Of a DNA stretch of 64,000 bases, positions 3,631 through 22,945 are shown piece by piece. A model generated the notes under the pieces. It had not been told where the DNA came from and searched no databases. It saw nothing but the letters and a program-made list of their open reading frames with translations. Both the position numbers and the translations under genes were made by a program. Position 1 is the stretch's first letter. Each line of letters begins with the position of its first letter. The DNA is from Bacteroidota bacterium. GTDB taxonomy: Bacteria > Bacteroidota > Ignavibacteria > UBA10030 > UBA8401. Location of the stretch: NCBI GenBank assembly GCA_021796275.1, contig JAJYOI010000001.1, positions 6,803 to 70,802 on the forward strand. The letters run 5' to 3'.

Positions 3631-3667
3631 GTCATACCGATGTGTTACCTACCTCTCTCGCCAGTCG

Positions 3668-6388: not shown

Positions 6389-6476
6389 AATATCTCTCCT
6401 TTTATTTATGGATGAGAATGAGTGTGGCATCTTCTCGCCGAAACACGGCTGGCGTGAACAGCCACGTTGCAATGGA

Positions 6477-6923
6477 TTAATTCTTCTTTATAGTTACAAT
6501 CACAATATCAGACGGTTTTCCTGTAAACTGAATTTTGTCGTGCGTGTAACCGGAAGGATACACTTTATACAAAACAACTACGCTATCGCGTGCACCTAGT
6601 TGAATCTCATTCGACGAATCACTGAACGTTGGGAAAAATGTTCTTCCGCGGGATTGAAAGAACGATGTATCATTAAAGCTGCGGAACACTTCCCAATCAC
6701 GAAGATTCGCTTGCTCACGGTCAGTACCGTATCGCACTGTGTCGTACGCCCACGTTAAAGTAATAAGCCTCTTATGCGATTGCGTACTGTCCAGTTGTGC
6801 CGAAAAATCAATCACATCTGGAACTCTGCCGTCGTGAGTATTCGGAATCAATCCGCGTTCCGGACCGCATCCCGCTGCAACCCACGAAAATGCTGCAAGA
6901 AAACACGTTTGCCAAAATTTCAT
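6477..6923 (-). CDS. Small lipoprotein, possibly with an FN3/Ig-like fold
   Basis: Signal peptide with lipobox MKFWQTCFLAAFSWVAAGC. The mature part is beta-rich (LITLTWAY...). Confidence 0.5.
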   Translation of the reverse strand: MKFWQTCFLAAFSWVAAGCGPERGLIPNTHDGRVPDVIDFSAQLDSTQSHKRLITLTWAYDTVRYGTDREQANLRDWEVFRSFNDTSFFQSRGRTFFPTFSDSSNEIQLGARDSVVVLYKVYPSGYTHDKIQFTGKPSDIVIVTIKKN

Positions 6924-6963
6924 ATGCAATTATATTCTATGATGATAGTTCAACAATTCTGAG

Positions 6964-7683
6964 CTACTTTCCTAACGGAATGGATAACGAAACCAGCGGT
7001 TGATGAATCCCTGCTGCCACACTATTTATGTTCACGCGTTCAGCAATCGAGGGAAATGAATTCACATCGTGAGAAAACATCCGCTGGCCATGATCTTCAG
7101 TATTCCAAATCACATCGGCAACATTCACTACCCAGATTACAGCCGACACTGCAAGAAAAATATTCCTACGGCGACGGTCAGTGACAAGCAGATTGTGTGC
7201 ATCAATCATCGATTGATAAACAGACTCCGAGTACGTCCAATTCGTAGAATTCTTGTACTGGAATTCCAACGCATCTAATCGTTCGCCGCGCGCAACATAA
7301 TTATTATGTGAGATCAATGCCGTGATCGCCGAACCGAACGCAAGCAGCGTGAACCCTGCGCCTTTATAGGTGTCACCAAGCATCGTTTGCCCTGCGCCGG
7401 GAATAAAGCAGGAATAAATAATTGCCGACGTTCTGCGCGACGAACTTTCGTCAGAGACTATCGCTGACGATTTCGAAGTGGATGCTGCCGAATCTTGCAC
7501 ATCGATGAAAGCGAATTGAAGCGATGCGACAACCTGCGGCGAAGGATCGGACCCATTGGCGGCGCTTTTCTTTCCGACTTCCGGTAAAGAAAATGCAGAC
7601 GATGCAGCCAATCCTATCAGCAAAAGAATGATGAGGGCAGAACGCCGATAATTAATTTTTGATTTTTTTCGATTCAAGTGCAT
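6964..7683 (-). CDS. Hypothetical membrane protein
   Basis: ORF with an N-terminal signal/TM (ALIILLLIGLAASSAFS) and two further hydrophobic segments (IPGAGQTMLGDTYKGAGFTLLAFGSAITALI; NIFLAVSAVIWVVNV). The start is taken at the internal Met MHLNRKK. It overlaps the upstream gene by about 30 nt. Confidence 0.45.
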   Translation of the reverse strand: MHLNRKKSKINYRRSALIILLLIGLAASSAFSLPEVGKKSAANGSDPSPQVVASLQFAFIDVQDSAASTSKSSAIVSDESSSRRTSAIIYSCFIPGAGQTMLGDTYKGAGFTLLAFGSAITALISHNNYVARGERLDALEFQYKNSTNWTYSESVYQSMIDAHNLLVTDRRRRNIFLAVSAVIWVVNVADVIWNTEDHGQRMFSHDVNSFPSIAERVNINSVAAGIHQPLVSLSIPLGK

Positions 7684-9169
7684 AATAAAAGATATTTGAG
7701 AGTAATTCACGTTGACGAGTAAAATCCTTTCCTGCGCGAACCTCAGCGGTATTGAACGCACCCCACGCTATCGAATAGCCGCGGTTTGAAACAACAGCAA
7801 CAAGGCGATTCTCGTAAAACATTCCTGAAAGAAAATCATAGATGACCCGTCCGTGCACATTCTGCAAATCGGGATCAACCGGGGGCAACACATCAAATCG
7901 TTTCCAGATGGAATAAATCGGATGGTCGCTGGGAATTCTGCTCGTTGAAACATTTTCTCCCAGCAAGGCGCCGACGTTCGTCAGAAAATTATTGATCGCC
8001 TGCCAATTCTCGCTCTGCGTTGATGTCGAGCGTTCATCGGCAATAATCATACCGCCGTTACGAATAAAATCCGCCGCGTTCTTTTCCTGTTCAGGCGAAA
8101 ACTTCATCTGTCCCTCATCGGCAAGAATCATCAGAACATTAGACGCTTTGAGTTCCGCCGGCAGAAGATTTGTTTTCAAAAAAGAGAGCTTGAAGTTAGT
8201 CGTTTCTGCAAGGTAATCTTCAAGCGGTTTCATCAATTGTTCTGCGGGAAGCACATTCGTTGTACGAACAGCGAGCTTAATTTCTCCGGTAGGGCGGGCA
8301 TTCGGATCAAGCTGCGAGATTTTTCCGCGGCTGCCAGCCGACAAACTGTCCGTTCTTCCCGCCACGTATCCTTGTTGGGCATTGGGCGGTGTAAACGGAA
8401 CCCGTTTAAAAAAGAATGTCAGGTTCACAAATTCTGACGGCTGATTATTTTCATCATAACCGACAATAAAATTTTTCAGGTCGAGTTTCACTTGCTCCAC
8501 TTCATCGGTCAACGGATCGAACACAATCAATCCATCGCGGACATCGCCGCGAAAAACAGGCTTTCCCAAATAATGCACTGTCCGCCGAACAATCCCCATC
8601 CGGCTCTCAAAGACATCATCGTCAACTCCGGATGTTCCCTTAAGTTTTTTAAAATAATTTTCAAGACTATGGTATCGGCTGTTCTTTTCTTCTCGCCCAT
8701 AACTGTACAGAAAATCGCCGCGGTCGCTTGTGAGAAAACAGCTTTCAGGATCAAGATTGATTTTTGAGCCGGCATAATTGTACACTGTAATTTTAAAGAC
8801 CATGAAACGCTGCGGTGTGTACCCCAACACCGGGTCCACCCAATTTCCATACGTGAACGGATTCGTGGAGTATTGACCGGCCTGTGATTCCTGCGGAAAC
8901 TCAACATTGTTCAACTGATAATCGGTCATGTACTTCACTTCGACTTTGAAATCTTTCCGGTCATAAATAGCCGTCAGCCTATCGGAGCTGAGCCGGTACG
9001 AAGAATCATTCAAAGCGTTCATGAATGTTTCATTAGGAACCAATGTGTACTCGATTCGCTGCGGCGGAAACACAACATAATGGTACACCGGATCGCATCC
9101 GCCAAAAGTTGCCGTGAGAAAAAAAACGGCGGCTATAAAGACAAACGCTATGATGTTTCTACGGTACAC
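7652..9169 (-). CDS. Hypothetical exported or membrane-anchored protein of 505 aa. The C-terminal half may be glutamine-amidotransferase-like (DUF4159/ThuA-like).
   Basis: N-terminal TM IIAFVFIAAVFFLTATFGGC. C-terminal motif LMILADEGQMKFSPEQEKNAADFIRNGGMIIADE. The domain assignment is tentative. Confidence 0.5.
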   Translation of the reverse strand: MYRRNIIAFVFIAAVFFLTATFGGCDPVYHYVVFPPQRIEYTLVPNETFMNALNDSSYRLSSDRLTAIYDRKDFKVEVKYMTDYQLNNVEFPQESQAGQYSTNPFTYGNWVDPVLGYTPQRFMVFKITVYNYAGSKINLDPESCFLTSDRGDFLYSYGREEKNSRYHSLENYFKKLKGTSGVDDDVFESRMGIVRRTVHYLGKPVFRGDVRDGLIVFDPLTDEVEQVKLDLKNFIVGYDENNQPSEFVNLTFFFKRVPFTPPNAQQGYVAGRTDSLSAGSRGKISQLDPNARPTGEIKLAVRTTNVLPAEQLMKPLEDYLAETTNFKLSFLKTNLLPAELKASNVLMILADEGQMKFSPEQEKNAADFIRNGGMIIADERSTSTQSENWQAINNFLTNVGALLGENVSTSRIPSDHPIYSIWKRFDVLPPVDPDLQNVHGRVIYDFLSGMFYENRLVAVVSNRGYSIAWGAFNTAEVRAGKDFTRQRELLSNIFYYALESKKIKN

Positions 9170-9171
9170 TC

Positions 9172-12100
9172 TTAATATCCCGCGAAGATGGTAAAATAGA
9201 TCAGCGAAAACTGCGTGTTATTTATTTTATCAACGGGGCGCTGATAATTGTAGTCTGTAATCTTATAGCCGAAATCGATCACGATATTGTAACCGCTGTA
9301 TTGAGCTTTGTTTGTCATTGAAATCGCTGTCGTGGAAGCATTCACGTCGCCGACGCCGTCGCGCAAAAAGCGGTTCTTGACAAGAAGCGCATCAGTGAGA
9401 CCGAACAGGCCTGTTCCCTGAACTCCGAAATGAAGTTCTGTATTATTCGTTAAACGATAATCAACGCGAAGTATCGGGATCAGCGATTGCGTGTGCGCCA
9501 TGATCGTTGTCGAGGTTGAATTGTCGTCATAAACATTTGTCGACACAACCTTCAATGTCCGGATTTTGAACTGCGGACGAAATTGCAAACGATTCTCAAG
9601 TATTGAATATGTGTAGTCAATTTTGTTGACAAGTCCAAGCGAAGTGATTTCGCCGGCAAACTGTTCGTCAACAAGCGGCCCGAATTGAAGTTCCGCCAAT
9701 GTCGGCGCACCGACAACATACCTTTTGTTGGATTCAAACCGAATATTGTTTTCGATGTTCAAATTAGGAATTTGCGTGTACCGCGTTCCGACGTACACTG
9801 TATGAGAAAGGCTATTGCGGTACAAAAGCGGATCAATGACGTACTGCGGGGTCGGGTCATTCGATATCACTCCGCTGAATTGATATCCGTCATTCCGGAT
9901 ATTATCATGAACACGTTTGAGAGTGTAATAGAGATCCACACTTCCCAATCGTGGAGTAGATACGTTGTATGTCGCCTTAAAATAATTCACGTCGCTTTCT
10001 CCACCGCGTGCTAATGCCGTTTCACGAATGAAGCCGATAGCAAGCTGCATGTTCCGCATCGCTTCAAGCAAAGCAAATGCATGGTAGCCGTCGGCGTCGG
10101 GATTATAGGGGTAATCCGGATAGATGTCGTTTTCCTGATCGTCAATGACGCTGTTATTGTTCCAATCGTCCCCGGCTTCAAAAGCAGGTGGGTCGCTGTA
10201 GTACGTCAAGAAATCTTCAGTATAATCCGGCAGACCATTCGAGTTGCGGTCATCGTCCGGAATGCCGTCATGATCTTTGTCTTTCCCGGGAAAAATTCCC
10301 GCGTCGGGTTTGCGGATGATATCGTTCAAGCCGGTAAGCTCATTCACATTTTCACGGTAGCCCAATAAAAATGGATCAGGTTTTGAATTCAGCACATCGG
10401 TATTTCGCGGAAACGATGTGTTTGCCGTTGCATTATAAAAATAGAAGCCATCCTCCCACCGGTCATTGTCATCATTGTCGTCAACAAGATCATAGTTGGC
10501 ACCGCCGGCAAGCAAATTATCTGTTGTTACTTTTGAAATATCATCTGTGCTGTAACCGATTGCATCCGGCGGATTATACACAATCGAACCATCTTGGGCA
10601 AAGCTGCTGTAATAACTGTTTTCCAATGTGTAGAGATTCAGCGATGTGCTGTACCACGGCTCGATACGGTACCGTTCTCCGCCCAGCGTCAACCTCCCAA
10701 TTTTTTTTGTGCCGCGAAAGTAAAACGCTGTACCATCCTTTTCATTCCACGGCGCCGCTAAGAGCGGATATTTACTGTAGGTAGCACTGCGGTCAAATTC
10801 TCCTTCTACGTTAAAGCCATTCCAATCGAACTTAAAGTTCATTCCATAGACGGCCATACCGGTAGTCAAACCGTAGGTATAAGAAACCCACCGCTTGTTC
10901 GAAGCATCCTGCACATTTCCCATTGCACGCTCGACCGGAAAGAACGGTGTCGGTGTTCCGACAATTGTCGTATCCCAGTGATTCGGATACCGTGGATCGT
11001 TTGGAGAATCCGGATACTTATCTGATACAAGCACCCAGTCATGTGCCGCATCCATTGCATAATCGTTCGCAAGCAAAAACGAAACCGATACCGATTGCGT
11101 CCCATACGGCATGATGAAAGCATAAACAAGATTTGAGTTCCCTTTTAATTCCGTAGGGTACTGCGGCGGCGGCACAACTGCACCGTCCTTCATTGTGAAC
11201 TGCGTACGATAATTATCGTAGTTTGTGAAATTCTTGTAAATAGTTTGACCAGAAACCGGATCGGTAACACCGGTATTGACACCTTTTCCCGGAACATAAA
11301 TCTGAGAACTGAAACCGAAATCTTTGAAGACCCAATATTGAATCGGGTTGTTCAAATTCGTATTGAGTTGGCTGGGTACATCTCCGTTAATATTGACAAT
11401 CGCGCGTTGAACACCATTCACAACAATTTTTGGTTGAGCATAAATAATCGGGCCGGATTTATCAAGCGGAGAATCGTCACGGACACGGATGAAAATGACG
11501 CGCGGAATTGCGTCTGCTACAACGCCTTTGAGTGAAGCATTCTTGCTGTCAATGCTCGAGTGCCGTTGATTTTGATTCACGTACGTTGCACCGACGGTCA
11601 GCATATCGCCAAAGTCCGTTTCAAAATGTCCGCCGAACAAATACGTCGCCCAATCCCGCGGCCGGGCAATGGAATTCGGCAAACTCGATGCGTCAAAACG
11701 AATGCGGACAGGATCGGATTCACGCGAGACAAGAATTGTTCCGCGATATTTTTCTGTCGCGCCGTCCCACCGCATGCCGTTGAATCGTGCCTTGTCAAGC
11801 GTAAGCGAAGTGAACTTTGTGCGGATCGCCTCGCCCAACATAATGCGTGAATTAAACCCGCCGTATGCGTCGTTTCCAATTACCAAATTATTGAACCACA
11901 AATTATAGTACTTTGATTTCTGTACGTCACTTCCGCCAAGTACCGGATTAATGAATTCGCTTTGCGATTCATTCAATTCATAAATTGACAGCCCGTCGAC
12001 CAAAAAATTTCCGAAATTATCATAAATTTTTCTTTTATTGAACTGAATGCTGTAGTTCTCGTAATTGCGTCCGGAATAATTTGAATATCCTTCATCGCCT

Positions 12101-12189
12101 TTGATCTCGTCCCGGTTAATAAATTGCGCATAAAAAACATCAGTGCAGCTAAAAAACAGTATCAGCACAGACAGTAACTTACGATTCAC
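9172..12189 (-). CDS. Large outer-membrane protein of 1005 aa with Asp-rich calcium-binding (thrombospondin type-3-like) loops
   Basis: Signal peptide MNRKLLSVLILFFSCTDVFYAQ. DKDHDGIPDDDRNSNGLPDY...DDQENDIYPDYPYNPDADG matches the DxDxDGxxDxxD pattern. The C-terminal strands end in an aromatic residue (..FTIFAGY), which is typical of OM beta-barrels. Confidence 0.55.
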   Translation of the reverse strand: MNRKLLSVLILFFSCTDVFYAQFINRDEIKGDEGYSNYSGRNYENYSIQFNKRKIYDNFGNFLVDGLSIYELNESQSEFINPVLGGSDVQKSKYYNLWFNNLVIGNDAYGGFNSRIMLGEAIRTKFTSLTLDKARFNGMRWDGATEKYRGTILVSRESDPVRIRFDASSLPNSIARPRDWATYLFGGHFETDFGDMLTVGATYVNQNQRHSSIDSKNASLKGVVADAIPRVIFIRVRDDSPLDKSGPIIYAQPKIVVNGVQRAIVNINGDVPSQLNTNLNNPIQYWVFKDFGFSSQIYVPGKGVNTGVTDPVSGQTIYKNFTNYDNYRTQFTMKDGAVVPPPQYPTELKGNSNLVYAFIMPYGTQSVSVSFLLANDYAMDAAHDWVLVSDKYPDSPNDPRYPNHWDTTIVGTPTPFFPVERAMGNVQDASNKRWVSYTYGLTTGMAVYGMNFKFDWNGFNVEGEFDRSATYSKYPLLAAPWNEKDGTAFYFRGTKKIGRLTLGGERYRIEPWYSTSLNLYTLENSYYSSFAQDGSIVYNPPDAIGYSTDDISKVTTDNLLAGGANYDLVDDNDDNDRWEDGFYFYNATANTSFPRNTDVLNSKPDPFLLGYRENVNELTGLNDIIRKPDAGIFPGKDKDHDGIPDDDRNSNGLPDYTEDFLTYYSDPPAFEAGDDWNNNSVIDDQENDIYPDYPYNPDADGYHAFALLEAMRNMQLAIGFIRETALARGGESDVNYFKATYNVSTPRLGSVDLYYTLKRVHDNIRNDGYQFSGVISNDPTPQYVIDPLLYRNSLSHTVYVGTRYTQIPNLNIENNIRFESNKRYVVGAPTLAELQFGPLVDEQFAGEITSLGLVNKIDYTYSILENRLQFRPQFKIRTLKVVSTNVYDDNSTSTTIMAHTQSLIPILRVDYRLTNNTELHFGVQGTGLFGLTDALLVKNRFLRDGVGDVNASTTAISMTNKAQYSGYNIVIDFGYKITDYNYQRPVDKINNTQFSLIYFTIFAGY

Positions 12190-12203
12190 TCTGCACTCCG
12201 AAA

Positions 12204-13184
12204 TCAGTTAAAAACATAGCCTAATGAAAGAGAACTAATACCGCCAACATTCCCCACCATCGCCTGGTATGAAAATGAATAGTCAATCGTAACATTTCCG
12301 ATGACAATGCCAAAACCGGCGTCGTACTCGCCTTGCGAATTTGCCGCAGTTAATCTGCCGCCGCCCGCGCGCACCAAAAATGCGGCAGCCGAGCCGAGCA
12401 CGGTCGTTTTCAAACCGATAAATTCCGCACCGCCGCCGACACGAATATCTTTTCCCTTCACAGTAATGCCCGCAGTAGCTGAATAGTCATACACGCGGGA
12501 AATATAGGAAGCTCCCGCACTCAACTCCGCGGGAAGTTTTGCATCGCTTGATCCGTTTGAGGCGACAGATGGTTGTGTGAAATTCAAGACCGACGCACCA
12601 ATTTGAATGTCGTTGCCTTTGAAAATATCTTTGAACGAATAAATTGCGCCGACATCGAAAGAAAATCCGAGATATGAAAGCGCATCCTCTGGAACCGCAT
12701 TTTCGCCTTGCGGCGCAAGTGCGCTCCACCGAAGCATTTTCACGCTGCCGCCAACGGACAATTGACCGTCGAACATTTGACGCGCAAAGGTACCGACAGC
12801 CATATTTTCCGACCAGCCTGCGGGAGCAAACTGAGTCACGCCGATTCCTATAACGCCAAGATCACTCACAGGATAATCGCCGGCAAACGAAAAGAAATTC
12901 AGGTTGGCATCGGCGATATTCGGATACAGATTTGTATATGAGGTGAAGAGCTTCAGCGAGCGGCCGAAGCCTATACCGGCAGGATTATAAAAAATAAGTG
13001 AGGGATCATCAGAGAGTGAAACAGCGGCACGCCCAAGCGAAGTGATCTTTGCACTGTATCCCTTATCAACAAATGCTTGTGCGTATGCAGTGTCCCGCTC
13101 TGATATGATCAACAATGAGAAAGAAAGAAAAATCTTCAGTAGCAAAGTTCTCACATGTATGCTTTCGTTAGTAAGCAACAACAA
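12204..13184 (-). CDS. FadL-superfamily outer-membrane beta-barrel. It is probably the PorP/SprF-family T9SS partner of the adjacent type-B CTD cargo.
   Basis: About 300 aa with a signal peptide. N-terminal hatch motif GRAAVSLSDDPSLIFYNPAGIGF (the G.A...DD....NPAG motif shared by FadL, PorV and PorP/SprF). Gly/Ala-rich amphipathic strands. It overlaps the 3' end of the upstream cargo gene by 17 nt. Confidence 0.5.
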   Translation of the reverse strand: MLLLTNESIHVRTLLLKIFLSFSLLIISERDTAYAQAFVDKGYSAKITSLGRAAVSLSDDPSLIFYNPAGIGFGRSLKLFTSYTNLYPNIADANLNFFSFAGDYPVSDLGVIGIGVTQFAPAGWSENMAVGTFARQMFDGQLSVGGSVKMLRWSALAPQGENAVPEDALSYLGFSFDVGAIYSFKDIFKGNDIQIGASVLNFTQPSVASNGSSDAKLPAELSAGASYISRVYDYSATAGITVKGKDIRVGGGAEFIGLKTTVLGSAAAFLVRAGGGRLTAANSQGEYDAGFGIVIGNVTIDYSFSYQAMVGNVGGISSLSLGYVFN

Positions 13185-14919
13185 CTGTTTTCGTTACAAA
13201 TTCTCCCCCGTTATCAACATTTACGGCGAGCTGAATAATATACACGCCCGGCAAAACCAGCTTGCCATTATCATTCCTCCCATCCCATAAAAATCCTTTT
13301 CCTCCGCTTCGTGGATCGCCAAAATATGGATTTGCTGCCGACGGCATCGAAACAACCGTTCTGATTTTTTTGCCGGTTAAATCGTAAATGGAAATTGACA
13401 ACGTTTTAGGCGTTTCAACATTAGCCACAGAAAAATCAATAATCGTGGCATCATTTTTTCCATCACCATTAGGAGTGAACGGATTAGGATCTATTTGAAC
13501 ATCAACCAGAACATTTTCAGGCACTCCGTTTGTCGTTACCGACCAACCATCGCCGGTTGCGGTTCGATGAGGATCGACAAACTGAGGGTTCCATGAAGCA
13601 TTTTTGCTGACGATCTCAGCGGGAAAATCGGCGCCTTCAATTAGTTTTGTAGTGAATGTAATATCGATTGTCGAAGATGTAACTATTGTCTGCGGGAACC
13701 CAATTGTCATTTGGTCGGGAGCGGGGAGAAAAGTATAAGAGATTGGAACTCCATCAGAAGAAACGGAACGAACCACTGCCGGACCCGGACTTCTAATTTT
13801 TACTGTATCCAGTCCAAGTGAGCTATGCGAAAAGTACGCCGCAATAGAATATTTCAACGTCACTGGGCTTAGCACGGGAACATCGGACGGAGTAATAAAC
13901 GCAACAGTCGAATCCGCAATCAGATTTTTTTGATAGACAAACTTTACGCCTTTCACTTTCGGCGTACCTAAATCTGACGTGAAAAGATGAAGGCGGTATT
14001 GAAAATTTCTCCTCGGCTCTTTGACATCAAGGAGCGTTCCTTTTTCGGCTTCTTCAGCCGAAAAGAATTCGACCGGCGTTGACCAGGCAGACCAAGTTGT
14101 GTCAGCAGCCGGTGTGTTCCCGGTGCGCATCTCAATTGAAACCGATGTTGCATTATCAAAATCAGCGTCAACATAAACCTGCCCGAAATTCACTGCTGCA
14201 CCAAGCGAGGTATCAATCGCAGAAGTGTACGTTCCCTCCGAAACATATCCTTCCCCGAAAATCCTGATTTCGGAAATAACGGTATAATCCGTGAGAGTCT
14301 GTTTATCCAAGACAAAAACAAGGTAACGCGCAATGACGGGCTGTGAAAGATAGGCAGTATGAATAGAATCCTGGTTATCGAGTTCCTGATAAATTTTTGT
14401 AAGACTATTAGAATCCACCCCGGCATAATAAGAAAATGCGAGCGGGCGTTGTTTCTTTGACGAACCGAACCCGCCCAAATCTGCCACCTGAATTCGATTA
14501 ATACGGCGAATCGCCTGCAAGTCAATTGTAATGAAAGAACCAACATTGCCCGGCGGCAGCGATACGATGGAAAAAAGATTGTTGTCACGCAATTTGTTCG
14601 CATTCATTTTCGCTGTGTCGGGAACCGTCGTGTTGGGAATTGGACCATTAGTTTGCGGAATAGGGCCGATATAGGTTATCGAGAAGCGGGCATCGAGCGC
14701 CAGGTTTTTTGTGTCGCCGCTTGCGAGAACAATGGCATGCGGCACCGCACCCAAGTCAACATCCGCAGTTTGCTGTATATCCCGCTTGGTAGAGTCTGAA
14801 AAATCCGTTATCGAATAAACGAGAGAATCAGAGGAACTTGTAACTTCGGGTAACTGCGAGTATAAACTTAGAGGAAAAATAACCGAGGTGACAAAGAAGA
14901 GATAAAATATTTTTCTCAT
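13168..14919 (-). CDS. Secreted adhesin-like protein with a type-B T9SS C-terminal domain (gliding-motility-associated / SprB-type CTD)
   Basis: The C-terminus VQIDPNPFTPNGDGKNDATIIDF...YDLTGKKIRTV...FLWDGRNDNGKLVLPGVYIIQL carries the NPFTPNGDGKND signature. The signal peptide MRKIFYLFFVTSVIFPLSLYSQ starts at ATG 14919. The ORF-track start at 14994 is likely too long. Confidence 0.7.
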   Translation of the reverse strand: MRKIFYLFFVTSVIFPLSLYSQLPEVTSSSDSLVYSITDFSDSTKRDIQQTADVDLGAVPHAIVLASGDTKNLALDARFSITYIGPIPQTNGPIPNTTVPDTAKMNANKLRDNNLFSIVSLPPGNVGSFITIDLQAIRRINRIQVADLGGFGSSKKQRPLAFSYYAGVDSNSLTKIYQELDNQDSIHTAYLSQPVIARYLVFVLDKQTLTDYTVISEIRIFGEGYVSEGTYTSAIDTSLGAAVNFGQVYVDADFDNATSVSIEMRTGNTPAADTTWSAWSTPVEFFSAEEAEKGTLLDVKEPRRNFQYRLHLFTSDLGTPKVKGVKFVYQKNLIADSTVAFITPSDVPVLSPVTLKYSIAAYFSHSSLGLDTVKIRSPGPAVVRSVSSDGVPISYTFLPAPDQMTIGFPQTIVTSSTIDITFTTKLIEGADFPAEIVSKNASWNPQFVDPHRTATGDGWSVTTNGVPENVLVDVQIDPNPFTPNGDGKNDATIIDFSVANVETPKTLSISIYDLTGKKIRTVVSMPSAANPYFGDPRSGGKGFLWDGRNDNGKLVLPGVYIIQLAVNVDNGGEFVTKTVVVAY

Positions 14920-14972
14920 GAATACTGCATATTGTATCGAAGGTTTGTTAGAAGGGTAAACTAACCGCAGTG

Positions 14973-15001
14973 AATATACAAGATATTGCCCCAATTGTCA
15001 A
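14973..15001 (-). promoter_or_regulatory. Sigma-70-type promoter (TTGACA-N17-TATATT) driving the T9SS-cargo/OM operon
   Basis: On the minus strand, TTGACA is the reverse complement of 14996-15001 and TATATT is the reverse complement of 14973-14978, with a spacer of exactly 17 nt. It sits about 50 nt upstream of ATG 14919. Confidence 0.5.
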
Positions 15002-15012
15002 TATATTGCCAA

Positions 15013-15612
15013 CTAATTCCTATACAACCGATGTTCCATGATATACTCTTCCACAGAAGTAGGAACGAGATAACGAATTGATCGGTGCGCTTTCACTGAG
15101 GCGCGAATTTCCGATGACGATATTTCAATATCTGGAACATCAACAAAAATTGCAGACGAAGAAAATGGAAGCTGCTGCTGATTGTGTTGATATGAAGCGC
15201 GATTCATAACAATAAGCTTTGCCTGTTCTACAATTCGTTCTGGAAATTTCCATGTCCGAAATTCAATGAAGTTATCCATCCCGATCAAAAAAAATAATAA
15301 GTCGTTCGTGTGCTCGGCGCGAAGCGCTTCGACAGTTTCAAAAGTGTAAGATGTCCCTTTCCGCTTCAGTTCAATATCGGAAACTGTGAAATGGGAATTA
15401 TCCTTAATTGCAAGTCTAACCATTTCCAACCGCGCTCGTGCATCTTTTTCTTCCCCCGCTTGTTTATGTGGTGAAATGAAAGATGGAATAAAAATAATTT
15501 TGTCCAAGCCGGCCCTTTCGCGAACATGCTCAGCAACAATCAAATGGCCGTAATGCGGCGGATTGAATGTTCCGCCAAAAATTCCAATGTTCATTTTTTT
15601 CTTATCGTTCAT
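15013..15612 (-). CDS. nadD: Nicotinate-nucleotide adenylyltransferase
   Basis: IGIFGGTFNPPHYGHL (H/TxGH) motif, typical NadD length, SxxxxR-like C-terminal region. Confidence 0.9.
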   Translation of the reverse strand: MNDKKKMNIGIFGGTFNPPHYGHLIVAEHVRERAGLDKIIFIPSFISPHKQAGEEKDARARLEMVRLAIKDNSHFTVSDIELKRKGTSYTFETVEALRAEHTNDLLFFLIGMDNFIEFRTWKFPERIVEQAKLIVMNRASYQHNQQQLPFSSSAIFVDVPDIEISSSEIRASVKAHRSIRYLVPTSVEEYIMEHRLYRN

Positions 15613-16717
15613 TTTTTCCCATCACTTTTTCATAAATTTCCATTGTCTTTTGCGCAGTCGTTCGCCACGAAAAAAGCCGGGAACGCTCTCTCCCTTTCTC
15701 AATCATGTTTTTCCTTAAATCTGGTTCTCGCAATAAACAAACGATCGCATCTGCAAATTCATCAACATTCCCCGACTCGCAAATCATCGCCGCATTCCCT
15801 ACGACTTCCGGCAATGATGCAGCCTTCGAAATAACAACCGGAATTCCGCATGCCATCGCTTCCAACGCGGGCAAACCAAATCCTTCATATAGCGACGGAA
15901 GCACAAGCATCTCTGCCGCGTTGTATGCAAGCATAACGTCATCATCAGCAAGCCGGCCGAGAGTTTTTATTCTTCCCGAAATTTCAGAGACACCGGTGTT
16001 CAGCCAATCCACACCTTCATGATTCAATGTTCCACCTACAATTACAAGGTCAATATCGGGAAAAATGCGAAGGGCTTTTTTGAATGCATCAAGCAATACT
16101 TCCAGCCCTTTGTGAGGTTTGGTGTTGCCGACAAAAAGAACGTACGGCCGTTCAAGTTGAAACCTCGATCTAAAATCCTCAGCTTCAGAAGAAGTATGTT
16201 TTTGACGAAATCGCTCCGACACACCGAGATGAATTGGTACAATCTTTTCTTCCCGCACCCGGAATGAGCGGAGAATATCGTGCTTTGTAAACTCGGAATC
16301 TGTTATGATATATTGAGCATCACGGACTGCGTGAAGAATCATTCCGTAAGAATACGCCCGCTGAAAGGAAGAAAATAATTCCGGAAATCGTAAATGAATA
16401 AGATCGTGGATTGTTACCACCGCTCTCTCCTTCAATCCAAAGGGAAGCGTATAATGCGGCGCATGGAAAACCGAGACATCATTTACTGCAGCCCTTCTGC
16501 CGAATAGAAAAATCTCGCTCACTGAATACTTGCCATATCGTACAACAGATGTTGTCCATCCGTCAGGAATAGAAAGTTTTTCTTCATCCTCCGGCGAGAC
16601 AAAAAGAAGAAACTCGTGCCCGGATTGAATCAAAGGCAATTCTTCAACAAGATGTCTGATATACGTCCCAATCCCGAAGTCATAATATTTTCTTGCGTCA
16701 ATTGCGATACGGCTCAT
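15602..16717 (-). CDS. Glycosyltransferase family 4 (GT-B fold)
   Basis: EX7E-type motif region [18 protein letters not shown]. Start at Met [10 protein letters not shown] (ATG 16717). Overlaps nadD by 11 nt. Confidence 0.8.
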
Positions 16718-16721
16718 AGTA

Positions 16722-17546
16722 TTATCCGTGTGACTTGAACAACGAAGCAAGGATTACTGCCGACGTTTTTTTACCGCTTGCAGTTAGAAACCGAACGGCA
16801 AATTTCAAGAAAAGATAAATACGTAAAAAGATTCGCTGCGGTATTGATCGGAATTTATCGTAAAACCGAAGCTGGCTTTTCCGATATTCTGTCTGGATTT
16901 TCGCATTTGACACATCGTAGCTTTTTCCGCCCAAATGTATAAGGCTGAGTTCTTGAAAATACTTAATTGAAAAGCCATTGCGCAACACGCGAAAGCATAA
17001 ATCAATATCCTCAAAATACATGAAATACTTTTCATCGAACCCGCCGGCTTGCTCAAATACTGACCGGCGCACCATCATCGCGGCTCCAGTTACCCATTCA
17101 ATATTTCCGGATACTACCACTTCACGTTTTGTTTTCCACTCATTCAAAAGTGACGGGAATTTTCCGTACGAAATTTGGAACGAACCATCTTCATTGCTCA
17201 GCGAGGGTGCGGCAATGCCGTTCGTTTCATTTTGTTTCATGAATACAGCAAGCGGCGTAATAATGTCCGAAGTAAAAAGCGTGTCGTTATTAACAAAGAA
17301 AAGAAAATCACCGCACGCTTTCATCACACCAAAATTGTTCGCACTGCTGAAACCTTGATTTTGTTCCAGCAGAAATACTTGATGCTCGGGAAAATCCTTT
17401 TTAAGCCGATGCCCGCTTCCGTCTGCTGAGTTATTATCAACAATAATAACTTCATAATCCAAGGAAGGCGCAAACTGTTTCAGAGATAAAAGACACTGCT
17501 CAGTATAAATGCCGCCGTTATAATTTACAATGATAACGGAAACCAT
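16722..17546 (-). CDS. Glycosyltransferase family 2
   Basis: N-terminal VSVIIVNYNGG...DNNSADGS (DxD-type GT-A signature). Confidence 0.8.
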   Translation of the reverse strand: MVSVIIVNYNGGIYTEQCLLSLKQFAPSLDYEVIIVDNNSADGSGHRLKKDFPEHQVFLLEQNQGFSSANNFGVMKACGDFLFFVNNDTLFTSDIITPLAVFMKQNETNGIAAPSLSNEDGSFQISYGKFPSLLNEWKTKREVVVSGNIEWVTGAAMMVRRSVFEQAGGFDEKYFMYFEDIDLCFRVLRNGFSIKYFQELSLIHLGGKSYDVSNAKIQTEYRKSQLRFYDKFRSIPQRIFLRIYLFLKFAVRFLTASGKKTSAVILASLFKSHG

Positions 17547-17549
17547 GTT

Positions 17550-18581
17550 TTAATCGGTCATGAATTCTATTGTTCGAATATTCACGATTCTGAAATACCA
17601 AAGCGCAATTTTGTTGATGAGTGTTCCGAATATTGATTCGCCGTTCGTTATTTTGCTTGTCATTCGTCGGATGATTTCTTCTTCTGAAACTTTCTTCAAC
17701 ACTGCAAGTTCGCCTCGCTTTTTCCGAATCAATCCGATATGAGACAGGAGCCACCAATACGCCCGGACTATTCCGACGATGGAATATTTCGTCGGAAGCA
17801 AACCGGCGGCACTTTTAGCAAGCGCGTTTAACACGAATAAAGGCAAAAGCTTTACTAATGTTTTCGGAGAGAAAAAAAGAAAAGTATTCAACAAACGATT
17901 ACGCTCTTGATAGAACGTCTTCACAGAAGATTTTTGATTCCTTGCCGTACCGGAGCCGCGATGGTACACAACTGAATCGTTCACATGAATTACATGGTAA
18001 CCGGCAAATCGGGCTTTCAAACTTAAATACACATCTTCACCGTAGGTAAAATACTCAACGTCGAAAGGAATTCCAAAAATGTTCTTCTTGTAAATAAGCG
18101 ACGCTCCGCCTGCAAAAAAAATATCTTCCCGCTTTTTGAAGACACGCATAATGTTATGCCCGAGAAAATTAACCGAACCGTTCATCTCGTAGTATTTTTG
18201 CGGAATACCCTCAGTCAAAATGAGTGATGATGCTGCGGCAACATCAGCCGGAGAAACAGCGCTCACCAGATTAGAAAGCCAGTCTTTTTCTGCTCGTGTG
18301 TCGTTATTTAAAAGAACAATGAGAGTGCCATGCGAAGCTTGAACACCAAGGTTATTCCCTCCGGCAAAACCAGAATTGGTTTGAGAACGGACAATCTTTA
18401 CCTGCGGAAAGTGTTCCCGAACAAATTCCACGCTGTCATCTGATGAAGCATTGTCAACAAGAATAACTTCAAATTGAGTGTACGCTTGTCGAAACACCGA
18501 ACTCAAACACACATCCAAGAAGCGTTTGCCGTTAAAATTGACAATGATAATTGAAACAACCGGTTGTTGAGTCTCGCTCAT
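17550..18581 (-). CDS. Glycosyltransferase family 2
   Basis: VSIIIVNFNGKRFL...VDNASSDDS. Confidence 0.8.
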   Translation of the reverse strand: MSETQQPVVSIIIVNFNGKRFLDVCLSSVFRQAYTQFEVILVDNASSDDSVEFVREHFPQVKIVRSQTNSGFAGGNNLGVQASHGTLIVLLNNDTRAEKDWLSNLVSAVSPADVAAASSLILTEGIPQKYYEMNGSVNFLGHNIMRVFKKREDIFFAGGASLIYKKNIFGIPFDVEYFTYGEDVYLSLKARFAGYHVIHVNDSVVYHRGSGTARNQKSSVKTFYQERNRLLNTFLFFSPKTLVKLLPLFVLNALAKSAAGLLPTKYSIVGIVRAYWWLLSHIGLIRKKRGELAVLKKVSEEEIIRRMTSKITNGESIFGTLINKIALWYFRIVNIRTIEFMTD

Positions 18582-18584
18582 CAG

Positions 18585-19523
18585 TCAGAATTTGAAAAGT
18601 GAATTCACATACCGCAGAGAGACGTTCCGCCGCGATTGGATGTCTTTCCGCTTTGCCAAGAGAACCGGAAAAAATTTGATAACCTCGACAGCTGCCTGAA
18701 GCTGTTCCTTGATAAATCCTTGTTGAAGAATCTTCATCGCATTATAAATTCTGCTCAGAATAATTAACGCAGCACGCAATAAAAAAATCTGCCACGGAAC
18801 ATTTTTGAGCAGGTAAAAGAAAGGATTTCGCGCATGAAGTTTTGCCGCAAGGCTCGTAATCTGTAATTTTGTCCCACCGCGTTTGTGATAGCATACGGCA
18901 TGTGGAGTATAGAGACACTTATAGCCCAGAAGCTGGGAACGAAAATCATGATCAATATCTTCACCCCAGGCAAAAAAAGATTCATCGAATAAGCCGACTT
19001 CATCAAACATCTTTCTGCGATAAAGCGCAGCGCCTGCGCATGCACCGAAAACATAATGGAAAGAATCGAACGAACCGTTATCCAGTTGTTTTTCACCACG
19101 CGAACGACCGTTCCCGGCACAACTCAACTCATCACCGGCGGCATCAATAATATTGCGATGATAAAAGTTCATCATCTTACAAGCAACAGAGCCGATTTCA
19201 TCATGTTGGCGAATTGCTTCAATCATTTTTTCCAGCCAATCGCCCGTTAATTCAATATCGTTATTCAATAGCGCAATATAGTCATTGCGTGTCGCAGTGA
19301 TTCCCGCGTTCACCGCACACGCAAATCCTTTATTCTCACTGAACTGAATCCACCGTACTTGAGGAAAATTTTCCGCTACATACGAAACTGAACTGTCGCT
19401 CGATCCATTATCAACAACGATAACTTCGAAATCGGAATACGTCTGCTTGAAAATCGAATTCAAACAGAGCGGCAAATGCTCCATGCCGTTATAATTCGGA
19501 ATGACAATGCTAACGGCCGGCAT
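18585..19523 (-). CDS. Glycosyltransferase family 2
   Basis: VSIVIPNYNGMEHL...VDNGSSDSS. Confidence 0.8.
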   Translation of the reverse strand: MPAVSIVIPNYNGMEHLPLCLNSIFKQTYSDFEVIVVDNGSSDSSVSYVAENFPQVRWIQFSENKGFACAVNAGITATRNDYIALLNNDIELTGDWLEKMIEAIRQHDEIGSVACKMMNFYHRNIIDAAGDELSCAGNGRSRGEKQLDNGSFDSFHYVFGACAGAALYRRKMFDEVGLFDESFFAWGEDIDHDFRSQLLGYKCLYTPHAVCYHKRGGTKLQITSLAAKLHARNPFFYLLKNVPWQIFLLRAALIILSRIYNAMKILQQGFIKEQLQAAVEVIKFFPVLLAKRKDIQSRRNVSLRYVNSLFKF

Positions 19524-20493
19524 GGAGAGGAACTCCTCGGTGACGAACGAACATCGTGTAAAACGATTTCAAAAAAAGTTTATGCTTTCTTTTGCTATAC
19601 GCAGCCGATTCGAAGGCATTATTGCCAGCAACGGTAATGCTGCGGATGAGATAGATAATGCCGGAGTTACAAACAAGAACGAGTTCGACAAAAAATGCGG
19701 AAAGTTTCGATCTGTTTTTTTTGAAAAACAAAATCAAACTGAGGGTAAATCGTTCAAACACCCATTCATTGTTCTTTGATACAAAGCTCCTTCCGCCAAC
19801 GTGAGTGAGCGCTGCTTTCCGATACAGAACAAGCTTCCACCCTGCTCTTCTCATCCGTAAAGACCAATCCACGTCTTCAAAAAATAATTTGTATTCTTCA
19901 TCCATCAATCCAACAGCAACAATCACGCTGCGCCGAACGAGAATACATGCGCCGGGAATTTGCTCTACCTCAGAATATTCTTCATCCTGAAGCGGCGCTT
20001 CCAGGAATCGCTCAACAAGCCATTGTATTTTTCTGCTCCACGGCTCGAAAAAGGTATGGAAAAATATAACTTGAAAAAGAGTGGGGATTTTTCTCACATA
20101 ACCTTTTTGAAAAACACCGTCTGCATTCATCAACATCGGCATAAGAGCGCCGGCATCAGCGTGTGATTCAAAAAAAGAAATAAGCTTTTCAATCGCTTCC
20201 GGCTGAAGCACAATGTCTGGATTAAGAATCAAAATATATTTACCTTGCGACCTGCGTATTCCTTCATTGACACCCCATGCAAAACCGTTGTTGACAGTGC
20301 TCGCCACTAACGAAACTTCTGCGTAATTAGTTTTCACTGTATCGCAACTCCCATCGCTTGATGCGTTGTCAACGACGATCACTTCTTTTGAAAACGCGGA
20401 AAGGCACCGGACGATAGAATCCAAACACGAAAGGAGATATTCCTTTGTATTCCAATTCACAATGATAATAGAAAGATCGGGTAGCATGTTCAT
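19510..20493 (-). CDS. Glycosyltransferase family 2
   Basis: LSIIIVNWNTKEYL...VDNASSDGS. Start taken at Met MNMLPDL (ATG 20493), downstream of the flippase gene's stop. Confidence 0.75.
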   Translation of the reverse strand: MNMLPDLSIIIVNWNTKEYLLSCLDSIVRCLSAFSKEVIVVDNASSDGSCDTVKTNYAEVSLVASTVNNGFAWGVNEGIRRSQGKYILILNPDIVLQPEAIEKLISFFESHADAGALMPMLMNADGVFQKGYVRKIPTLFQVIFFHTFFEPWSRKIQWLVERFLEAPLQDEEYSEVEQIPGACILVRRSVIVAVGLMDEEYKLFFEDVDWSLRMRRAGWKLVLYRKAALTHVGGRSFVSKNNEWVFERFTLSLILFFKKNRSKLSAFFVELVLVCNSGIIYLIRSITVAGNNAFESAAYSKRKHKLFLKSFYTMFVRHRGVPLHAGR

Positions 20494-20503
20494 AATGTGC
20501 CAT

Positions 20504-22048
20504 TCAGCGTTCGAAAGATGCTGCAACCTTACGAACGATACGACGGACAATACCAATGTCGTATTCATCGAAAACTTTGAACAGCAACAGTGTTGCAACA
20601 ACAATTCCAAGATACAGCATTACGGCTAATAATAAACTGACAATTGTTCCTTCCCGAGAAAATGACATCGGATATATTGCATGAATGACAACTTGAGCGA
20701 TCAACGCAGCCCCAATACAAATTGACATTGGCTTGATGAAGATGCGGGCAATCAGCAGTGAAGAAATGCCCATGGTTCGGTGAAACGCGACAATGAAATA
20801 AAAAGCCCCAATAATAAGTGAAAGCGATGTCCCTAATGCGATGCCAACGGGACCAAATAGAAATGCACCGAGCAACGTAATGCAAATATTTATGACTGCT
20901 ACCAAAAGCCCGTAATTTCTGTCCAATTCTGTTTTACCTAACCCTGCAGTCATCGAACTAGCAACACCTGTGACAATATTAAAGAAATAGCCAATCGCAA
21001 GAAGCCGTACAAAAGCGACTGATGTTTCAAACCCCGCGCCGACCCAGGCATAAATAATATCGGAAACAAAAACAGTAACAAAGCAGAAAAAAAAGCTTGC
21101 GACTATTACAATATATTTCGTTCCGCGTTTATACAATGCCGTTAATTGTTCGCGATCATCTTTTGCATTGATTTCAGCAATCGCCGGAATGAGCGCCGTG
21201 AGGATCATAAATGAAAATGAACGCGCAGCACTTGTCAACCGCACGCTTAAATCATAATACGTTGAAACGAACGCGCCAAAAAAACGAAGGCTGAAAATCC
21301 GATCCGTCTGGAAAAGAATAATTTGCCCCATTCGACTTACCTGCAGATTGAACCCGTAATGCAAGAACTGTTTTACTTTTGTGAAAGCAAAATAGCGCGG
21401 GCGAAGCTTTAATGACGGAACAAGTCGGAATGCAATGACACTTAGACACATGGCATTGACTGCCGCAACAATCAGATTGTTCACAACCAAACCGCGCACG
21501 CCATAACCGGAACGAAGAACAAAAATTGTTCCGGCGATAGTAAGTGTTTGTGTAACAAAAGAAACATATAAATTGACTTCCATTCTTTGAATGCCGTTGA
21601 TGATTGACGTTACCGGAGACGCAATTCCCGACAGAACAAAAATACACACTGCAACTTTTAACACAAACTCTGCATCGCCAAGAATTGCCTGAGGCACTCC
21701 GGCAAGAGAGAGCAGAACGCCGCCAAGAGAAAGTGCTAAACCAATAATTACGATCCCGATGGCTGCATAGACGATCACTCCCGTGTTGACAACTTCGAGA
21801 AGGTCATCCATCATGCCTTTTGTGTAATATTCACTGATATATTTTACGAAGGCAGTGCCTGTTCCCATGTCCAATAAGCCGATGTAGGCAGTCAATGCGC
21901 CGATAATTGCCCACACCCCGCCATACATTTGTTCGCCGAGTGAATGGACAATAAACGGGACAAGAAAAAAGTTGGAGACAAAAATGAAAAAAAAATTGAT
22001 CGAATTGGTGATGGTGTTGCGGATTATTTTACGCGGCGTTTCATTCAT
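20504..22048 (-). CDS. Wzx-like polysaccharide flippase (MOP/MATE superfamily polysaccharide biosynthesis protein)
   Basis: About 12-14 predicted TM helices across 514 aa. It sits inside the GT cluster. N-terminus IRNTITNSINFFFIFVSNFFLVPFIV. Confidence 0.7.
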   Translation of the reverse strand: MNETPRKIIRNTITNSINFFFIFVSNFFLVPFIVHSLGEQMYGGVWAIIGALTAYIGLLDMGTGTAFVKYISEYYTKGMMDDLLEVVNTGVIVYAAIGIVIIGLALSLGGVLLSLAGVPQAILGDAEFVLKVAVCIFVLSGIASPVTSIINGIQRMEVNLYVSFVTQTLTIAGTIFVLRSGYGVRGLVVNNLIVAAVNAMCLSVIAFRLVPSLKLRPRYFAFTKVKQFLHYGFNLQVSRMGQIILFQTDRIFSLRFFGAFVSTYYDLSVRLTSAARSFSFMILTALIPAIAEINAKDDREQLTALYKRGTKYIVIVASFFFCFVTVFVSDIIYAWVGAGFETSVAFVRLLAIGYFFNIVTGVASSMTAGLGKTELDRNYGLLVAVINICITLLGAFLFGPVGIALGTSLSLIIGAFYFIVAFHRTMGISSLLIARIFIKPMSICIGAALIAQVVIHAIYPMSFSREGTIVSLLLAVMLYLGIVVATLLLFKVFDEYDIGIVRRIVRKVAASFER

Positions 22049-22057
22049 GTAAACAGT

Positions 22058-22945
22058 TCACCTTAGCTGAGAATGAAGCAACGACAATTCGGCTTTTGTG
22101 TCATGATGAAAAGAAAAAAGCTTCAGTGCAATAGGGCTTTTGGTCACTGCCATTAAACGGAACAAAAGAATCGGCAAAAGAAAATATTCTGCTTTTCTGC
22201 CAAAATGCATGCGGTAGTATAATAATATATTGCAGTACATTTCCAACCGTAGCTTCGGATTCGCCTGCTTCGTGCTGCGGCTGCCATGATGCATAACAAC
22301 CGCCAGCGGCGTAAAATATATTTCCCATCCACTGTGTTTTATCCGCCGACATAATTCCACATCGTTATAGAGAATTGTTAATCGTTCATCGAAGAGTCCG
22401 AAAGAATCCACGATCGCTTTGCGAACAATTAAGCACGTTGCATCAGGCTGATCTACAGAGCGCACGACGTCATGTTTGAACTTTTTCATCAGATAACCGG
22501 AGTTCAACCAATTGAGCGAACAATATAAAGCCGCTGCGTTCAGCGGAGTCGGAAAGCGTTTGCACGAAGGTTGAAGCTTCCCGTCCGGTGTAACAAGCTT
22601 GCAGCCTACGGCACCGGCATTGTGGTATTCATTCATAAATTGTATCATCTTTTCCAACGCGTTTCCACGAACTTCGGTATCGCTGCCTAAAAGTAAAATA
22701 TATTTCCCTTTTGCAATTTCCGCTCCCTGATTATTTGCCCGCGCATAACCAAAATTTTTTGCATTACAAATCAGGACCACATCAGGAAATTCACTTTCGA
22801 TCATATTTGCTGAGCCATCAACCGATGCGTTATCAACAACTATGATTTCATACGTTCCCTTTGGAGGTTGCACATAAATTGAACGCACACATTCCCTCAA
22901 CAAATCTCGGGTATTCCACGATGCGATGATGATCGATAATTCCAC
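22058..22945 (-). CDS. Glycosyltransferase family 2
   Basis: LSIIIASWNTRDLL...VDNASVDGS. The GTG start lies immediately after the trpB TAG stop. Confidence 0.75.
   Translation of the reverse strand: MELSIIIASWNTRDLLRECVRSIYVQPPKGTYEIIVVDNASVDGSANMIESEFPDVVLICNAKNFGYARANNQGAEIAKGKYILLLGSDTEVRGNALEKMIQFMNEYHNAGAVGCKLVTPDGKLQPSCKRFPTPLNAAALYCSLNWLNSGYLMKKFKHDVVRSVDQPDATCLIVRKAIVDSFGLFDERLTILYNDVELCRRIKHSGWEIYFTPLAVVMHHGSRSTKQANPKLRLEMYCNILLYYRMHFGRKAEYFLLPILLFRLMAVTKSPIALKLFSFHHDTKAELSLLHSQLR

Follow-up and report, generated by a model that had tools for sequence, protein, structure and literature searches.

The subject of this analysis is a pair of adjacent genes at positions 12204 to 14919 of a 64,000-nucleotide (nt) stretch of contig JAJYOI010000001.1 (hereafter the window), of which the upstream gene encodes a predicted exported cargo protein and the downstream gene a β-barrel protein. 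We lean towards the explanation that the two products form a dedicated cognate substrate and its carrier or anchor of the type IX secretion kind, which would display a lectin-like protein without gliding. We base this explanation on the observed domain content, fold, homology and co-conservation of the pair. An earlier reading of the window, made from the letters alone (the sequence-only reading), had described a 608-amino-acid (aa) cargo with a gliding-motility-associated C-terminal domain (CTD), whose stop overlaps by 17 nt the start of a 326-aa barrel presumed to be its PorP/SprF-family partner. The core of this proposal was retained, while the gene starts, the family assignment of the barrel and the view of the pair as a free-standing unit had to be revised. 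The genes and the candidate promoter are as follows.

13168..14919, minus strand: cargo gene, 583 aa, ATG at 14919, from the open reading frame (ORF) and public gene calls
12204..13154, minus strand: barrel gene, 316 aa, GTG at 13154, from public gene calls
14973..15001, minus strand: sigma-70-like promoter candidate TTGACA-17-TATATT, located between nadD and the cargo gene in a gap of 93 nt, consensus match only

ORF translation placed both genes on the minus strand at the positions given before, and both are real and strongly non-random (CTD against CHU_C, expect value (E) 2e-7; barrel against PorV/PorQ, E 1e-15). The 608-aa version of the cargo corresponds to the longest ORF (13168..14994) and starts from TTG 14994, a codon that falls within the promoter candidate at 15001..14973, which is the top-scoring site (11/12) of positions 1..15700 of the window. 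Public assemblies call the product as 583 aa, and in an orthologue with 82% identity (locus L002) the ATG alone is present at the position equivalent to 14919. We therefore take the cargo to start at ATG 14919. The barrel can be read as 326 aa only from TTG 13184, and an exact look-up of that product returned no record; the 316-aa product is on record, called beside the cargo and with a 100% identical entry (P0001). Moreover, the N-termini of barrel homologues align at MRTLLLK/MKTLLLK, the start of the 316-aa form, and the L002 barrel has the GTG alone at the position equivalent to 13154. With these starts, the cargo stop codon (13168-13170) is followed by a gap of 13 nt to the barrel GTG, and the 17-nt overlap turned out to be an artefact of choosing the longest ORF. 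Spacing among orthologues ranges from about -13 to +29 nt. Therefore, the tight juxtaposition of the two genes is conserved, whereas the overlap is not; such juxtaposition may permit translational coupling.

The cargo consists, in this order, of a signal peptide, an F5/8 type C (CBM32-like) domain, a β-rich middle region and a type-B-like CTD. The two recognizable domains lie at these positions.

14269..14598, minus strand: F5/8 type C (discoidin/CBM32-like) domain, aa 108-217; PF00754 28.9 bits, gathering threshold (GA) 28.2
13171..13488, minus strand: cargo CTD, aa 478-583, PNPFTPNGDGKND...WDGRNDNGKLVLPGVYII...TKTVVVAY; type-B-like, invariant terminal Tyr

The signal peptide, judged by eye, spans aa 1-22 and would be cleaved between LYS and QLPEV, the N-terminus being MRKIFYLFFVTSVIFPLSLYS followed after the cleavage site by Q. 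For the F5/8 domain, a sequence search of the PDB identified the CBM32 of AlyQ (7d29_A, E 0.0026) as the closest solved relative. The CTD reaches the stop codon, so that it forms the extreme C-terminus of a protein whose N-terminus carries a Sec signal peptide (by eye). When the CTD was isolated from the protein, CHU_C (PF13585) matched with 31.5 bits (GA 27, E 2e-7, profile positions 4-72 of 86), compared to 26.0 bits for the full cargo, and TIGR04131, the type B model, reached 24.9 bits (cut-off 35) over profile positions 4-44 of 85. TIGR04183, the type A model, gave 16.4 bits in the full cargo and 20.1 bits for the isolated CTD (cut-off 23). All 15 orthologues matched both TIGR04131 (best E 2.1e-8) and CHU_C (best E 2.7e-9), whereas type A models matched 13 of the 15 and did so more weakly (best E 5e-4). 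A precomputed PF13585 match is present in most members of the cargo family, and two distant relatives are publicly named [quoted passage not shown]. Hence the gliding-motility CTD of the sequence-only reading was found with its exact motif at 13171..13488 and with type B as the best class in 15/15 orthologues, but it stays below the TIGR04131 cut-off. We take the cargo tail for a divergent Ig-like CTD, type B in flavour yet intermediate between types A and B.

The CTD is also the best-conserved region of the cargo, with an identity of 0.67 compared to 0.47-0.56 elsewhere among the Ignavibacteria, and of 0.42 compared to 0.19-0.29 for the rest of the protein in the more distant phyla KSB1 and Zixibacteria. 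Its C-terminal Tyr is invariant, including in KSB1, Zixibacteria and the distant L018 lineage. This conservation is in line with retention and binding of the module, as opposed to its removal by cleavage. Distant proteins with CHU_C tails were also encountered, namely tandem 716-aa arrays and a Latescibacteria protein; they lie outside the cluster described below, have no adjacent barrel, and were excluded as evidence. One such array, in locus L023 (5451..14420), comprises four tandem paralogues of ~716-721 aa with CHU_C-like tails and no adjoining barrel gene.

The product of the downstream gene certainly belongs to the FadL-fold superfamily of PorV, PorQ and PorP, as the sequence-only reading had recognized. 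It carries a signal peptide (cleavage between AYA and QAF) followed by an N-terminal hatch with a conserved motif.

12975..12986, minus strand: NPAG hatch motif, barrel aa 57-60, from the translation

N57 is invariant in the 27 members of the barrel family and in 77 wider relatives, P58 and A59 are at least 90% conserved in the 27-member alignment, and the motif, which had likewise been noticed before, aligns to WNPAK in PorV. An AlphaFold2 (AF2) model (predicted local distance difference test (pLDDT) 87.4, predicted template modelling score (pTM) 0.83) shows 14 strands behind N-terminal hatch helices. Foldseek placed PorV first (template modelling (TM) score 0.76), followed by FadL relatives and BamG; the PDB fold matches include no PorP/SprF structure. 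The 27-member profile matches Flavobacterium johnsoniae PorV (6h3i_F, E 7.6e-13) across both halves. The 14-strand FadL fold is a feature that PorV and PorQ share. The C-terminus of the barrel is its last strand (...LGYVFN), and the protein contains no cysteine and therefore lacks the Cys-X-Cys gliding tail of SprF.

With regard to the subfamily, NF033709 (PorV/PorQ) scored 57.9-58.2 bits (cut-off 90, E 1e-15, profile positions 6-205 of 326), PorQ 22.9 bits (cut-off 220) and PorV2 21.3 bits, and the PorV equivalog NF033710 gave no match at E <= 0.01. The sole Pfam match was PF11751 (PorP_SprF), a marginal pass at 22.6 bits (GA 22.3). Within the 27-member family, NF033709 matched all 27 (best E 4e-54), TIGR03519 (PorP/SprF) 19 (best E 7.7e-11) and the PorQ model 26; the best PorQ value (E 1e-70) probably stems from one of the most distant members, whose identity is not stated in the output. 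A search of the full library with the barrel profile yielded 25,535 clusters at E <= 1e-3 and 405 at E <= 1e-30. The 77 nearest sampled neighbours all matched PorV/PorQ, while 38 matched PorP, 20 PorV and 17 PorQ; in Pfam, TraF_2 was found in 31 and PorP_SprF (PF11751) in 27 of the 77, and a few barrel relatives match Toluene_X. NCBI names some homologues PorP/SprF, and many carry a precomputed PF11751 match. The barrel thus leans towards PorV/PorQ by sequence, while its gene context is PorP/SprF-like. The possibility raised along with the PorP/SprF partner proposed earlier, that the barrel would score as PorV rather than as PorP/SprF, partly came true (57.9 bits on PorV/PorQ, 20.7 bits on TIGR03519). 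Many of the wider relatives (P0205-P0319) measure 430-700 aa and extend past the barrel with LysM, OmpA-like or TPR parts; they look like a PorP-like barrel fused to a PorE-like wall anchor.

The association of the two genes is maintained over long evolutionary distances. A scan of a genome collection identified 14 species-level loci, all from Ignavibacteriales or "Bacteroidetes" metagenome-assembled genomes (MAGs), and in 14/14 related species the cargo gene is located immediately upstream of the barrel gene. The same adjacency was found in loci of KSB1 and Zixibacteria, which we reached via homologues of a 1005-aa protein encoded next to the pair. Identities of their members to those of the window are 27-35% for the cargo (tail included), 33-34% for the barrel, 34.5% for the big barrel and 31% over the full length of the TPR protein. 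In total, adjacency to the CTD gene was kept in 16/16 module-bearing lineages examined, which represent three phyla. The co-conservation that the sequence-only reading proposed to check is thereby borne out, as is its statement that the pairing occurs outside the classical gliding Bacteroidetes: the host, an Ignavibacteria-type MAG, lies outside the gliding Bacteroidia. Cultured Ignavibacteria are flagellated (PMC3534657).

[quoted passage not shown] In our case, we infer binding of the cargo by the barrel, dependence on a type IX secretion system (T9SS) and retention of the tail, and the steps would be the following. First, Sec would export the 583-aa cargo. The 316-aa barrel would then recognize the conserved type-B-like, Ig-like CTD with its PNGDGxND loop and, by analogy to SprB-SprF and PG1035-PorP, collect the cargo at the outer-membrane translocon. 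Finally, the barrel would retain the cargo non-covalently with the tail uncleaved, and the discoidin/CBM32-like domain would be shown on the surface. Because the barrel has neither cysteines nor a periplasmic C-terminal tail, the pair would represent a static anchor and not a track-gliding adhesin. The displayed cargo probably works within a larger envelope assembly.

The pair can be compared with several characterized systems. It resembles SprB-SprF and Fjoh_3952-Fjoh_3951 of F. johnsoniae in that a substrate gene is followed by a gene for a 14-strand FadL-fold barrel (PMC12618676), that the tail carries a PNGDGxND-type motif with TIGR04131/CHU_C as best models, and that the expected result is a protein kept at the surface by its own barrel. 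It differs in that the barrel scores 21 bits on PorP/SprF and better on PorV/PorQ, and that the CTD, with an additional insertion of ~18 aa and an invariant Tyr at its end, does not reach the TIGR04131 cut-off. In SprF, an invariant Cys-X-Cys in the periplasmic C-terminal tail is disulfide-bonded to GldK in gliding (PMC12635249), whereas the window barrel lacks this tail, and hence track coupling. Furthermore, the host lineage is flagellated and not gliding (PMC3534657), and the pair lies inside a conserved multi-gene cluster. Another parallel is PG1035-PorP-PorE of Porphyromonas gingivalis, in which a non-motile type B protein with an uncleaved CTD sits on PorP and is tied to periplasmic TPR/OmpA-like partners (PMC9143113); likewise, the window cluster co-encodes a giant TPR protein and lipoproteins, and barrel relatives exist with LysM/OmpA/TPR fusions. 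Unlike there, the window cluster yielded no PorE-like gene (TPR-WD40-CRD-OmpA_C), porKLMN are not adjacent, and the family score thresholds are not reached. PorV (6H3I chain F), the general type A carrier, is the best solved match of the barrel (E 7.6e-13; TM 0.76) and shares its 14 strands, hatch and NPA, but the window barrel is ~85 residues shorter (316 compared to 402 aa), gives no NF033710 match at E <= 0.01, and is genetically tied to one CTD protein and not to porU. PorZ-PorQ and PorU-PorV, in turn, are similar in that a CTD protein is presumed to be permanently held on a PorV/PorQ-like barrel and that the cargo CTD matches the tails of the respective models; beyond the tail there is no similarity, and the scores are far under the cut-offs.

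Several observations weigh against a dedicated type B substrate and carrier. Neither protein reaches the NCBIfam cut-off of the proposed family: the full cargo scores 21.3 bits on TIGR04131 (cut-off 35), and the barrel 20.7-21 bits on TIGR03519 (cut-off 90.55). The barrel is nearer to the PorV/PorQ model than to PorP. The cargo CTD shares 28% identity with the type A CTD encoded by a neighbouring cluster gene, from which two insertions, NGDGKND and a loop of ~18 aa, chiefly set it apart. The PorU and PorZ models are matched as well, at their CTD ends; the cargo does so in the tail only and with 15-25 bits at cut-offs of 260-420. In the distant lineage L018, a cargo homologue with a CTD has no adjoining small barrel: locus L018 (10001..18795) shows three tandem big-barrel paralogues after the cargo homologue, whose CTD ends in GVVY, and no small barrel between them. 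Finally, none of the larger ORFs scanned in the 64-kb window (all but about eight ORFs at 29.7-40 kb) encodes a T9SS core component; the rest of the scanned larger ORFs are housekeeping genes. One BLAST survey of Ignavibacterium and Melioribacter detected SprA, PorV and Plug as the sole T9SS components (PMC11705866), a result that leaves room for a non-standard energy chain.

On the other hand, T9SS substrates appear to be present in the same organism. The same contig array has genes for three type A CTD proteins, one scoring above the TIGR04183 cut-off and two recognized by precomputed Por_Secre_tail matches. Reviews list Ignavibacteriota among the phyla that may have a T9SS (PMC11285876), T9SS components have been reported in Ignavibacteriota (PMC11285876, PMC11705866), and enzymes with Por CTDs are known from M. 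roseus (PMC3534657).

The sequence-only reading had treated the pair on its own and overlooked that it is not free-standing: in every case, the two genes are the first of a conserved same-strand cluster. Downstream of the barrel gene, the window contains the following features.

9172..12189, minus strand: 1005-aa outer-membrane protein, large β-barrel with an inserted β-sandwich and an Asp-rich loop
7652..9169, minus strand: DUF4159 protein of 505 aa whose signal looks like that of a lipoprotein (..FGGC, by eye); PF13709 32.7 bits
6964..7683, minus strand: 239-aa DUF5683 membrane protein; PF18935 31 bits; gene call; syntenic in Ignavibacteria-type loci
6477..6923, minus strand: 148-aa small putative lipoprotein (..AAGC); gene call; syntenic; no family match
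3668..6388, minus strand: 906-aa protein; Golvesin_C, Ig domain of HYDIN/VesB type, canonical type A CTD; TIGR04183 42.4 bits, cut-off 23; gene call
3601..3630, minus strand: terminator-like hairpin between the type A CTD and TPR genes, stem of 13 bp including 8 GC pairs; consensus only
418..3561, minus strand: 1047-aa TPR protein; repeats of YbgF/BamD-like type, C-terminus in part PorW/SprE-like
1..418, minus strand: second DUF4159 gene, start only (465 aa in the full contig), from the translation; runs off the window

Where contigs allow, the order in Ignavibacteria-type loci is cargo, barrel, 1005-aa protein, 505-aa DUF4159 protein, DUF5683 protein, small lipoprotein, Golvesin_C/Ig/type A CTD protein and 1047-aa TPR protein. 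In KSB1 and Zixibacteria, the TPR gene is followed by ExbB, ExbD, DUF4159 genes and type A CTD proteins; ExbB (MotA_ExbB) and ExbD lie directly after the giant TPR gene in loci L016 (15973..17433) and L020 (16023..17274). The cluster as found in Ignavibacteria lacks ExbB/ExbD. The most conserved gene is that of the 1005-aa protein (62-88% identity across the 14 species), for which we found no NCBIfam, Pfam or PDB sequence match. Its 113 homologues (P0063-P0175) occur in Ignavibacteria, KSB1, Zixibacteria and Handelsmanbacteria and are all called "hypothetical", some with a precomputed PF21620 (SlpA_C) match. Its AF2 model has a pLDDT of 74.5, and Foldseek returned MtrB and SlpA on top (TM 0.17-0.25), that is, generic large barrels. 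An SprA-like or other specific identity of this protein was considered and found to be unsupported, given the lack of a PDB sequence match and the low TM of the fold matches.

Synteny of the 505-aa DUF4159 gene holds in every locus that extends far enough to reveal it, and a separate gene encodes the N-terminal half of its product in KSB1 and Zixibacteria. The 906-aa protein additionally matches FlgD_ig and Por_Secre_tail and has an orthologue in the Zixibacteria locus. In the 1047-aa TPR protein, NF052312 (PorW/SprE) gives 100 bits (cut-off 250) over the C-terminal part of the model and tol_pal_ybgF 199 bits over 6 stretches, and YbgF/CpoB and BamD repeats are found as well. The ORF after the TPR gene had been guessed to be TonB-like from its N-terminus, an assignment that was dropped when the full contig showed a DUF4159 protein. 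Beyond the window, its own contig (GCA_027371395.1) carries this second DUF4159 gene and, after it, genes for two amidases that both bear a type A CTD, first Amidase_2 and then Amidase_3, with a PD40 gene between them. At 14555..20428 of locus L021, downstream of the window start and just past the TPR and second DUF4159 genes, the two peptidoglycan amidases, Amidase_2 and Amidase_3, each with Big_5 and a type A CTD, flank a PD40/TolB-like protein. We found no published work describing the cluster, DUF4159 function or a Zixibacteria T9SS.

This genomic context raises the question whether the whole cluster might be a self-contained outer-membrane export or anchoring machine that is independent of the classical T9SS. 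In such a machine, the ~1000-aa barrel would serve as conduit or as platform, with the giant TPR protein and the DUF4159 lipoproteins as periplasmic scaffolds, ExbB/ExbD as the motor in KSB1 and Zixibacteria, and the small barrel and the CTD proteins as shuttle and substrates. Cargo, small barrel, big barrel and TPR protein do travel together in three phyla at ~30% identity, with ExbB-ExbD inserted in two, and the big barrel is both the most conserved gene and of no known family. Likewise, the arrangement in L018, the reported restriction of Ignavibacterium and Melioribacter to SprA, PorV and Plug (PMC11705866), and the fact that we found no paper on DUF4159 function or a Zixibacteria T9SS speak for an independent system. 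However, the Ignavibacteria cluster has no ExbB/ExbD, it holds canonical type A CTDs, which are known T9SS/PorV substrates, the big barrel resembles MtrB/SlpA only generically (TM 0.17-0.25), and co-location is no evidence for a role as translocon. We therefore regard a self-contained machine as unlikely, though it is the strongest of the rival explanations.

Slightly less likely still, in our view, is that the barrel is the PorQ/PorV-type general T9SS component of this lineage and the cargo a resident PorZ/PorU analogue in an attachment complex. PorZ and PorU keep their CTDs and sit on PorQ and PorV, and the pair would then handle glycan or lipopolysaccharide (LPS) for the type A cargo of the cluster. 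The best score of the barrel is indeed on the PorV/PorQ model, 26/27 family members match PorQ, the cargo CTD matches the CTD ends of the PorU/PorZ models, the cargo has a carbohydrate-binding domain, and the same array also contains genes for type A CTD proteins. Yet the barrel itself reaches just 23 bits on PorQ (cut-off 220) with no PorV equivalog match at E <= 0.01, the similarity of the cargo to PorU/PorZ is confined to the tail and includes neither propeller nor peptidase parts, and a separate PorV has been reported in cultured Ignavibacteria (PMC11705866).

With a similarly low probability, the pair could be the tip of an undescribed envelope machine of the FCB group (Ignavibacteria, KSB1, Zixibacteria), which would comprise the ~900-1000-aa barrel, the ~1040-aa TPR protein, DUF4159 lipoproteins, ExbB/ExbD in two phyla, a PorV-like shuttle and CTD proteins. 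This machine would serve either T9SS-independent export and anchoring or, as an alternative energy or hub module, CTD secretion; the latter version could apply to lineages reported to lack GldKLMN. Lastly, an ordinary FadL-type channel for hydrophobic small molecules, for which the FadL fold, the conserved NPA(G) hatch, the high structural ranks of FadL, TodX and TbuX and the Toluene_X matches of a few relatives might speak, is very improbable, as it would make the adjacency to a CTD gene meaningless although this adjacency is kept in 16/16 module-bearing lineages of three phyla, sequence and structure alike match PorV best, and the window barrel gives no FadL family match.

The surroundings of the cluster provided a number of further observations. 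Upstream of the cargo gene (15602..22945, minus strand) lie nadD, five or six genes for glycosyltransferases of family 2 (GT2), one for family 4 (GT4), and a gene whose 514-aa product is MATE-like/flippase-like. Only some relatives (L002, L012) share parts of this glycosyltransferase neighbourhood, which is why we place it outside the conserved cluster. Positions 22946..27650 (minus strand) hold a run of trpB, trpF, trpC and trpD, broken by a gene for a 305-aa CorC/GldE-like CBS-domain protein (25655..26572). A second FadL/PorV-like candidate, a 483-aa DUF5723 protein whose N-terminus matches PorV/PorQ (E 5e-7), is encoded at 58346..59797 (minus strand), directly downstream of the gene for a 743-aa protein of no family and with no recognizable CTD (59843..62074, minus strand); a TPR gene lies upstream (62706..63974). 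Signal peptide cleavage sites that leave an N-terminal Gln were seen, by eye, in the genes at 14919, 13154, 12189 and 6388 (after LYS, AYA, FYA and SQA, respectively, the last leaving QQ), in agreement with the "Q-rule" value of 77% for Ignavibacterium album (PMC5837995). Scans of the region for Rfam families, tRNAs and repeats revealed nothing relevant.

To our knowledge, demonstrations of type B substrate-carrier pairing come from Bacteroidia only (Flavobacterium, Porphyromonas). The arrangement of a dedicated substrate and its carrier, which we favour for the pair, is textbook knowledge for Flavobacterium, and some barrel homologues are already annotated as PorP/SprF. New are the lineage range, which includes Ignavibacteria, KSB1 and Zixibacteria, the intermediate character of both tail and barrel, and the fixed place of the pair in an uncharacterized conserved cluster. 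The combination of an intermediate tail with a barrel that leans towards PorV/PorQ suggests an old origin for the dedicated-carrier arrangement and a blurring, outside the Bacteroidia, of the categories of type A and type B and of PorP and PorV. Overall, the fixed company of the pair, namely the large barrel, the giant TPR protein, the DUF4159 lipoproteins and sometimes ExbBD, points to an uncharacterized envelope assembly in poorly studied phyla.

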